Part shown: positions 38,901 through 42,220 of the stretch, one piece after another | Layout of the letters: every line of letters starts with the position of its first letter | Position numbering within the stretch: position 1 is the stretch's first letter | Origin: Narcine bancroftii | Lineage: Eukaryota | Reading direction: 5' to 3' | DNA length: 64,000 nucleotides | Assembly: GCF_036971445.1 (NCBI RefSeq) | Contig: NC_091481.1 | Location: 12,772,001 to 12,836,000, forward strand | Program-made: the position numbers and the translations under genes | The notes under the pieces: generated by a model | What the model was told of the DNA's origin: nothing | Seen by the model: only the letters and a program-made list of their open reading frames with translations | The model's database searches: none

Positions 38901-41900
38901 CTCCCAACTGGTCTCTTTTTTAAACATAGATTTTCGTTTCTGCTTTTAGTGGTGGATTAGCTGCAGCCCATCCTCACGATCATTTCATTGTGTATGCTTA
39001 AACAGAATAGCAGAGTTGCAGAATTGACCTCCTTCTGTTCCAGGTATGGTTGAGATGGGCGAGGAAGGTGATCTGTGGCTGAACAAACATTTAACCCATT
39101 ATTGTTGTCAGTGTTTTCTTTGACCCATAAACATTCAGTGGTACAGAAGGACTAAACCTCCAAACTACACCTCCCTCGTTCCATTGTTTTTTATACATTC
39201 CTTCTTGCCTGCCTTCTTCAAACTTCCTGGCAACCAGACTTCCAACCTTCACTCTCTCTGCACTGCCCACTCTGGCTCCCTTGTTATGTAGATCCTACCT
39301 TCCTGTTTAAAGTTTGTCAATGTAATAATATAGGAATGTGGCAGGCAATTTGAGCACTGGGAATTTATAGAGAGTAATGTAGTTGGCTAGTTACATTATT
39401 CTAACGCTGATTGGGAAAAGCTATTGATCAGAAAACCTTTAAGGAATTCTGCTTCCCTTCATATTGTGTCATGGAATAATTTAATTCTGTGAGATAGTTT
39501 TGCTTCCATACAACAGGACAGAATGAGTCTCAGTTTAAGAGCTTTTCTGCGAAGGTGAATAGGTTTAATAATATGTACCCTGTGCCGTGGGTTCTGAGCC
39601 CACACCTGGCTCTTGTGAGAATGCATTCAGCTGAGACATGAATAAAACCTGATCAGACAGATTATTGTTTTTCACCTGAGCTGTGACTACTTGTAGAATA
39701 TTTTCGGTACTTCCTTTATTTACCTGAGTTTCTGAACTGCTTTGCAGATAGAAGCTGGTTTATCAAACAGAAGTGAGGATGATGGCGTAGAGACTTTGAG
39801 GATTCCTTGATTTATTTAATTCTGGGTGTGAATGGTTTGTATGTACAAGTGAGCAGTTAAGATAATGCCCTCAATCAGTCCTGGTGTATGGTGGATATAC
39901 CAATAGTAACATGTGCAAGTGTCCCTTTGAGTCTAGGGAGGTGCAAGGAAGGGAAGAAAATTGTTAAGGATCATGCACTCACCCACCTCCCTTTCCCTTC
40001 CCAGCAGATGATGTCTCTGGGGTCTCCTTTAGTGCATGTGTAGAACCTGGCAACAGCCTCCAGCTCATACCCATACTAAACCAGGGCCATTGGTCTGTCA
40101 GTGTTAACATGTTGCAATCTCCTGCTCTGTGGATTGGTTCATTTATTCCTGGTGTTTGTACATCAGGCTCCATATTCTCCCTTCCTCTGAGAAACCCTAC
40201 AAACTAGTGGCCTTGGTTATAATATGAAAGGAGCTGCTGGTATCGTAGGCATGTGCTGTTCTTGCCTGTTGTGCTGTATCTGGCAGTGACATTTTAAGCT
40301 AGAGCTGTATTTATCCATCCATTTTTCTTTTTCTTTCTCTTTTGCTCATGCAATCACGTATCAGATACACATTTTTGCCATGTAAGTAAACCAAACGATT
40401 AGTAGATTAATAGTGTCTTACGTTGTCTGCCACAGCACACTGCACTGAACAGTCTGCGCTGCATTTGAATGTTTGGTGACACTACAAATTCAAGTTCCTT
40501 GCTTGAAGTTTAAACCACCCCCCCCCCCCCCCATATGAATTTGGGGTTGTGCATTCTGGACTTGTAATACGCTGGATGAAGCCCTGTGCAAGGTTTTACA
40601 GGGCCAAGAACGACTGGGATCGTACAGAGCAGGCTGACCCCTTTGTCAGGATGGCTGCGCTGATAGAGCAGTCTCAATTGGCCCCAGTGCCCACTAGACA
40701 GACCATGGTGCCCAACTTTAGAGGTGATCCTCTGCTCTCACATGCTCAATGATTTTGAGCCTGGGTTCACGTTAAGAATTCCCACTGAAGTTCAGCATTG
40801 TGACAGCTGTGTAACATTCTCTTTGAAGCAGTCAGAGGAGCTTAGAATAAGTTGCTGAAGCAATAACCTCTGTTGGTTATTCTTTCTGATGCAATGTTGG
40901 GTTAGGAACCCTGTCAGGTACTTATGAAACATGAAAGTCTGCAGATGCTGTGATTGGAGTAAAAACACATAGAAATACTGAAGGAACTCCACCAGTCTTG
41001 CTGCCTCCCATAGGAGGTAAAGATATTACTGATATTTTGGGCCTGAACTACTTCTTCAGGCCCGAGATGTAGATAATATATTGTATCTTTACCTTCTATG
41101 GATGCTGCAAGACTGGTGGAGTTCCTCCTGCATTTCTGTGTTTTTACAGGTAATTCCCTTGCAACTTTCTGATGCCAGTGTCCTGTCTTCCTCCCCCACT
41201 TTCCCTTCCTATCATTGCTGATCTTCTGATTACTGACTGATGAACCAAGATTATTTATGGAGGCATGATCACTTGTATTCCATCATACCACTTGAAACCT
41301 ACCCATTCCTCAACTGGTACAGGGAGTGCTGTCTCTCCTGTTTTTGGCCATAATTCTCCTATTCCCCTCAAAACACAATCCTCAATTCTGTTTCCATCCT
41401 GTCCTGACCCTTCAATTCCCTGAGACCCCTGTGGAAGCCTCGAGTTTCAACCCCTGCTCTTCACCCCCCCCCCCCCATTGCTCTTACTCAATTTTCAGCC
41501 AGAGTCCTTGACCACATTCCTAGACTCCAAATCTCTGCTAAAATCCTCTTTCCCTATGACTCTCCATCCCTTCCATGAAGCACATCACAATCTTGCTAAG
41601 CTTATGGTTAGTGACCATCCTTATGTTGGCCTTGTCCTCTATACCTTTAGCAAAATTGTGCAATACCCATTCAGTTACTGAGAGTGCAAATGAAGTTATG
41701 GTGGGGGGAACTCTGAGTGAAACAATCAATGGCACCCCACCTCAAAGCCATTCTTACACTGGTATACATCTAGGTATATTAGAATTTCTGCGCCATTTTA
41801 ACTCTACATGTGTTTTATGGGTTATTTGTGCCTACAGCTGGAAGAACGAACGAACTTGGGTAAATTGTGCCTTTAAATGATACTCTCAGATCATCTCAAG

Positions 41901-42141: not shown

Positions 42142-42220
42142 AGATGGGGGCATTGCTCACCAGACCATGGCTCCCAACGTCCCCTCCCCACTGGCCATCA
42201 AACACCAAAGGCACCCTTGA
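42120..42220 (+). CDS. IMPDH1: IMPDH1 exon 14, alternative frame used with the microexon ([33 protein letters not shown])
   Basis: Frame is open to TGA at 42218-42220; total 1641 nt = 546 aa. Confidence 0.85.

Follow-up and report, generated by a model that had tools for sequence, protein, structure and literature searches.

IMPDH1 of human, mouse and zebrafish photoreceptors is the closest described system for the locus reported here. In these three species the gene contains an exon of exactly 17 nt, which has been catalogued as a retina-enriched microexon (available text of PMC9303857). According to the supplement of that paper, the exon is included at 95% in human retina vs 5% elsewhere, and at 90% in the eyes of wild-type zebrafish vs 20% in those of srrm3 mutants. 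Inclusion also drops in the retina of Msi1/Msi2 knockout mice (excerpts of PMC7948980) and in human organoids upon MSI1 knockdown (excerpts of bioRxiv 2021.08.04.454918). IMPDH1 is a listed member of the RetMIC programme, whose exons are targets of SRRM3/4 and Musashi and combine a short length with UGC upstream and a UAG cluster downstream. In the main text of the RetMIC paper (PMC9303857), as far as available, human, mouse, chicken and zebrafish are named and the word "shark" is absent. Downstream clusters of three UAG have been described as a mark of Musashi-activated photoreceptor exons (PMC4991804), in a paper whose main text, in the portion available, holds no mention of Impdh1.

The human tail encoded upon inclusion of the exon lowers the sensitivity of the enzyme to GTP by about 5-fold. 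This tail is not resolved in cryo-EM, and steric hindrance has been proposed as its mode of action, while the available part of PMC8688572 states that how the tail lowers GTP sensitivity is unknown. In zebrafish, according to the same excerpts, the main retinal form has 624 aa and holds both an N-terminal and a C-terminal extension.

Here, a window of 64,000 nt from the ray Narcine bancroftii has been analysed, in which an earlier sequence-only reading had proposed the orthologous exon. The window exon is, with a probability of roughly 90%, the ray copy of the 17-base exon of human, mouse and zebrafish photoreceptors, likely with the same function. Exon, tail and regulation have all been described before, and stingray forms are already in RefSeq; the locus is therefore an ortholog of a known system plus one modest new lead, a motif in the distal part of the tail.

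Gene model and identity of the locus

The window contains an IMPDH1 gene with 14 exons, obtained by mapping homologs with tblastn and snapping the exon ends to AG/GT. The coding exons preceding the microexon are as follows.

11612..38894, plus strand: IMPDH1 coding exons 1-13, 1523 nt in total (tblastn, AG/GT ends, translation)
11612-11709, 22841-22889, 23678-23779, 25976-26050, 28025-28231, plus strand: exons 1-5
29043-29130, 29468-29667, 30014-30104, 32271-32366, 33745-33888, plus strand: exons 6-10
37200-37344, 37943-38086, 38811-38894, plus strand: exons 11-13

On translation, the product that skips the microexon has 514 aa, with the C-terminus EKRLY and a stop codon ending at 42141, and the product that includes it has 546 aa (1641 nt with the stop codon at 42218-42220) and ends in a 37-aa tail. 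The core of the protein is 99.2% identical, over 509 aa, to that of the red stingray Hemitrygon akajei, which bears out the sequence-only reading in its guess of a cartilaginous fish.

The window gene is IMPDH1 and not IMPDH2, for which the genome holds a separate locus on contig C11. This assignment is based on the bit scores of one exon per locus in a PDB search: exon 5 of the window reaches 113 bits with human IMPDH1, compared to 92 bits with human IMPDH2, and for the C11 locus the values are 95 and 119 bits, respectively. The ray genome thus has one IMPDH1-like and one IMPDH2-like locus, whereas zebrafish has two impdh1 genes. Intron 13 of the second locus was delimited as follows.

L012:4719-5022 (G000:C11): IMPDH2 intron 13, 304 nt

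No such 17-nt exon is present in these 304 nt. The search for a relic of the exon in this intron returned a best match of 12/17 nt, which falls in the pyrimidine tract, is not flanked by splice sites and has a shuffle p of 0.057; it was rejected. The second frame of the last IMPDH2 exon is likewise open, for 30 codons.

The IMPDH Pfam family is also matched exon by exon at two more loci, G000:C1:377.75-377.76 Mb and G000:C11:204.37-204.38 Mb, which are likely GMP reductases. Within the window, a GC-rich open frame at 11324-11713 runs into exon 1, and a single base separates the ATG from an acceptor, CAG; the frame is likely a housekeeping first exon with its promoter region. Further downstream, at 53300-58330 on the plus strand, lies a near full-length LINE-type retrotransposon with frameshifts, the ORF1-like part of which has no Pfam match. 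Its recognizable domains are three.

54765-55712, plus strand: LINE endonuclease (PF03372)
56072-56998, plus strand: LINE RVT_1
57864-58328, plus strand: LINE zf-RVT, weak match

The 17-nt exon and its predicted splice signals

The microexon lies in intron 13, which extends from the donor that follows exon 13 (end at 38894) to the acceptor in front of exon 14 (start at 42120), and is flanked by the following elements.

40321..40364, plus strand: microexon acceptor, with a pyrimidine tract, a spacer with two UGC (at -22 and -16) and CAG
40365..40381, plus strand: 17-nt microexon (mammalian exon 13b; human HsaEX0031609, zebrafish DreEX0039328), which shifts the frame
40382..40431, plus strand: GTAAGT donor followed by three UAG (40400, 40403, 40411)

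The arrangement that had been read from the letters, cag followed by 17 nt and gtaagt at 40365-40381, is found exactly there, and this exon and the 17-nt exon of mammalian retina are orthologous, with the frame switch as described. It codes for Y-T-F-L-P and the first base of F. Intron 13 contains six stretches of 17 nt between AG and GT, and only one of them encodes SYTFLPF, which is also the sole one with a GTAAGT donor; by chance, about 3e-6 stretches coding for this peptide would be expected. The encoded peptide is identical in human IMPDH1 (PDB 7rfh) and in the stingray RefSeq proteins, and 14 of the 17 nt equal those of zebrafish, as compared by eye with an exon-spanning primer given in the available text of PMC8688572.

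The acceptor region is predicted to have a layout of the SRRM3/4 type, a prediction in which the UGC are weak evidence alone, since TGC occurs within 40 nt at 5 of the 13 other acceptors of the gene. The UAG cluster past the donor is a predicted Musashi (MSI1/2) enhancer: the first 50 nt hold three UAG at the microexon vs 0-2 at the 13 other donors, and three are reached in 2.3% of the 50-nt windows of the gene.

Transcript contigs

Five public runs, for which the tissue is not stated and none of which is recorded as RNA, were examined as assembled contigs; X1-X4 were compared with positions 37000-44500, and X1, X2, X3 and X5 with 38780-40500. The contigs confirm the gene model and the presence of the skip form in RNA: junctions 37344>37943 and 38086>38811 are found, and the skip junction 38894>42120 is present in all five runs. 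No junction or loose end leading into the microexon appears in the five runs; since rare forms are lost when reads are assembled into contigs, this does not argue against inclusion. One contig of X5 (organism B) has A instead of T at 42120, the first base of exon 14; it does not alter the protein of the skip form, but in the inclusion form tail residue 5 would be Tyr instead of Phe, as it is in Xenopus.

An upstream exon and the probable main eye form

The sequence-only reading had assigned a retinal-type isoform of 546 aa to the ray. The sum is correct, but it describes only one possible combination of exons, because a second, upstream exon exists outside the window.

G000:C27:12764891-12765117 (L011:1501-1727), 7.1 kb upstream of the window: N-terminal exon of IMPDH1, retinal type

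This exon, which is absent from the window itself, is the sole match in the genome to the stingray N-terminal extension (E 7.7e-30, 77% identity). It contains an ATG and the conserved HETAAQRY helix, possesses a GT donor and is in frame with exon 1, to which it would add 76 aa, for a protein of 622 aa. By comparison with zebrafish and with the predicted stingray proteins, this 622-aa protein is likely the predominant form in the eye, rather than the one with 546 aa.

The exon also contains a short His-Gly repeat, two residues longer in the ray than in the stingrays, and the N-terminal exons themselves differ by two residues in length. Sites of the CRX type were looked for near the exon and discarded as a signal (two found vs 1.9 expected, none of them upstream).

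Comparison with the known forms

The ray gene shares with human IMPDH1(546)/(595) the 17-nt exon in intron 13, the frame switch in the last exon and the replacement of 5 residues by 37, and also the tail start TFLPFTKSG, the loss of E510 and R512 and a separate upstream exon with HETAAQRY. The long form of the ray has the same two replacements as human 546, E510T and R512L (bioRxiv 2021.08.03.454821), and the residues Y12, T159, S160 and S477, sites taken from the available part of PMC7176436, are kept. The two species differ in the N-terminal extension (76 aa in the ray vs 49 in human) and in the distal tail, which is Gly-rich and without PN[VI]P[ST] in mammals, while the ray tail has this motif.

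With zebrafish Impdh1a (544) and its tvX1 form (624 aa), the ray shares the 17-nt exon and both extensions (excerpts of PMC8688572). The zebrafish tail starts with SFLPF and has 35 aa instead of 37. In a gapless register compared by eye from the same excerpts, zebrafish and ray coincide in G14, H18, P23-P28, K32 and H33, that is, in 10 of 23 distal residues.

Two predicted RefSeq models of 620 aa, XP_072922988.1 (Hemitrygon akajei) and XP_059842974.1 (Hypanus sabinus), carry the tail. Stingray and ray have the same N-terminal exon, and 32 of their 37 tail residues are equal, five being different. In XP_072922990.1 (Hemitrygon) the microexon is read in another frame, in agreement with the letters of the window. 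In two Hemitrygon models exon 13 is shortened, with its end at a GT that the window shares (38865/38866); one of them reads the microexon as IHIFAI, followed by YEKRLY, and the other uses the third frame of exon 14. These models are possibly a further isoform or annotation noise.

Exon 14 and the proximal part of the tail

The last exon, read in two frames, is divided as follows.

42120..42141, plus strand: dual-coded start of exon 14, YEKRLY-stop upon skipping and F-TKSGFTE upon inclusion
42142..42220, plus strand: distal tail, part of the 3' UTR upon skipping, 25 codons and TGA upon inclusion
42173..42190, plus strand: PNVPSP motif, tail residues 23-28
42221..43371, plus strand: exon 14 3' UTR; the run contigs stop at 43371-43377 and the true end may lie beyond

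The replacement of EKRLY and its stop by a 37-aa tail, which completes 546 aa, had been quoted in full from the sequence and was reproduced exactly, and the start of the human tail, as given in the same reading, agrees with PDB 7rfh. The window tail has a start of the [TS]F[LV]PF type, followed by the open second frame of exon 14. Conservation beyond mammals, which the same reading had deduced, had already been published for zebrafish (PMC8688572 and PMC9303857, in the parts available). Constancy of tail length, which formed part of the same claim, is not supported, as the tails range from 34 to 42 residues.

The sequence-only reading had suggested selection on the length and on the proximal motif, a proposal that found no support. 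In its fullest form, this explanation says that selection keeps the tail length and the first 13 residues, and that the far end is free filler acting by its bulk. In its favour, the ray tails count 37 residues, as do 25 of the 33 distinct mammalian ones, the tail is invisible in cryo-EM, and steric hindrance has been put forward in the literature. Moreover, mammals, which do not have PN[VI]P[ST], still show the GTP effect, which speaks against a need for the motif in that effect. However, the lengths vary: 34 or 36 residues in seven frog tails, 35 in zebrafish, 37 in the window ray and the stingrays and 38-39 in three teleost tails (medaka, killifish), the remaining mammalian tails including lengths of 36, 38, 41 and 42 and one, frameshifted-looking, of 29.

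Tail residues 6-12 share their bases with YEKRLY-stop and are largely forced by this overlapping frame: among the 6912 synonymous codings of YEKRLY-stop, all of which were enumerated, none has a stop in the second frame, and only 2-6 residues are possible per position. IMPDH2, which does not have the exon, reads TRRGCSE in the corresponding frame, and the two changes between ray and stingray in the overlap are both synonymous in the first frame and replace a residue in the second (K>R, G>D). The proximal stretch is therefore weak evidence of selection on the tail. The exon-encoded YTFLP is real evidence of selection, though in Xenopus, where the distal motif is retained, the corresponding residues are TFLQY instead of TFLPF. 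Given the conservation of the distal residues set out below, filler at the far end seems unlikely.

The distal part of the tail

Tails were collected as the proteins with 21-49 residues past the H-S-Y anchor, a rule that excludes other anchors and longer, differently spliced ends and was satisfied by 71 of 286 proteins, with 44 distinct tails. No shark, chimaera, lamprey, bird or reptile tail is among the 286 proteins. Protein searches directed at the tail gave few matches, one and two. Five cetacean RefSeq models (whale, dolphin) have a longer and different sequence past TFLP, which suggests an extra exon or a shifted splice site.

PN[VI]P[ST] starts at tail residue 23 or 24 in all seven frog tails, all three teleost tails and the one stingray tail, counts that, the species being related, stand for about three lineages and not for eleven tests. 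The motif is also present in zebrafish, in an antibody peptide given in the available text of PMC8688572, and in Xenopus, which falls outside the anchored set, and in none of the 33 distinct mammalian tails. Ray and stingray distal tails coincide in 22 of 25 residues. Without gaps, the identity of the ray distal tail to those of frogs and medaka amounts to 5-8 of 22-25 residues (shuffle p <= 0.009), which would not be expected of free filler; the killifish distal tail, with a one-residue insertion, gives p 0.11 in the same comparison, which is not significant, and mammalian distal tails give 2-5 identities (p 0.02-0.6). The distal tail had been described as diverged, which is not what these comparisons indicate: rays, teleosts and frogs share a conserved, gapless distal tail, from which mammals are the group that departs. 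A general divergence had been deduced from the mammalian change because the ray had been compared only with human.

Conservation of these residues could also have its origin in the RNA, if the bases were an element in the 3' UTR of the skip transcript, the common form, and read PNVPSP by chance. They are indeed 3' UTR in the skip form, the form found in five of five runs, and the DNA comparison covered ray and stingray. The pattern of change between ray and stingray argues against it. The stingray exon 14 DNA was deduced from two models in two frames, a procedure to which 1 of 228 single changes is invisible. Past the canonical stop, 7 of 10 changes affect the third codon position in the tail frame (binomial p 0.02), with six synonymous changes in 18 sites vs four non-synonymous in 57 (Fisher p 0.01), in a test that comprises ten changes of one species pair in deduced DNA and was chosen after the data had been seen. 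Two of the synonymous changes lie inside the PNVPSP motif, and no change in length is needed up to the tail stop, while frame-0 translations place a net gain of 6 bases in the stingray soon after it. An RNA element is thus an improbable explanation. The least probable alternative, in which the exon is a silent relic in the ray or is used more in brain or other neurons than in retina, can draw on the average human neural inclusion of 13% (supplement of PMC9303857), which indicates some neural use, but sits badly with the perfect splice sites, the unchanged peptide, the UAG cluster, the intact upstream retinal-type exon and the third-position bias in the tail.

These comparisons point to protein-level constraint on the distal tail outside mammals, centred on PN[VI]P[ST]. 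It is conceivable, and no better than tentative, that the tail of the jawed-vertebrate ancestor had a fixed motif (His18, Pro-Asn-Val-Pro-Ser/Thr-Pro at 23-28 and Lys32) that bound a photoreceptor partner or received a proline-directed phosphate, and that it was kept by rays, teleosts and frogs and swapped for a Gly-rich sequence in mammals. The motif likely has a function of its own; its most likely nature, still speculative, would be that of a short binding site or a proline-directed phosphorylation site in a disordered tail. Reading PxxP as a class I or class II SH3 ligand was discarded, as the flanking basic residue is inconsistent among species. In the literature searched, which falls short of most subscription papers, IMPDH1 together with the motif was found only as the antibody peptide, and within the same scope no paper was found on the tail in cartilaginous fish, nor on the motif.

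Proposed mechanism in the ray

By analogy with the known systems, SRRM3/4 in photoreceptors, acting via the upstream UGC, and Musashi, acting via the downstream UAG, would drive inclusion of the microexon. Once it is spliced in, the last exon would be read in its second frame, and the final five residues of the enzyme would be swapped for the 37-residue tail. As proposed for the human enzyme, the new tail may weaken the compression of the octamer and lower feedback inhibition by GTP, with the result that GTP synthesis would stay on at high GTP. The main eye form would also carry the upstream exon and reach 622 aa, compared to 595 in human and 624 in zebrafish.

Implications

The ancestry of the exon had been deduced from bony vertebrates only, and a cartilaginous fish extends this range: the exon, both extensions and the predicted splice signals can now be traced to the ancestor that sharks, rays and bony vertebrates share. 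The tail divides into three parts, namely the residues contributed by the exon itself, a segment dictated by the overlapping reading frame and, at the far end, a motif that is preserved outside mammals. This motif offers a specific target to mutate in zebrafish. If the proposal is true, one regulatory input of retinal IMPDH1 would not be shared between zebrafish and mammals, which bears on the use of zebrafish as a model of IMPDH1 retinitis pigmentosa.
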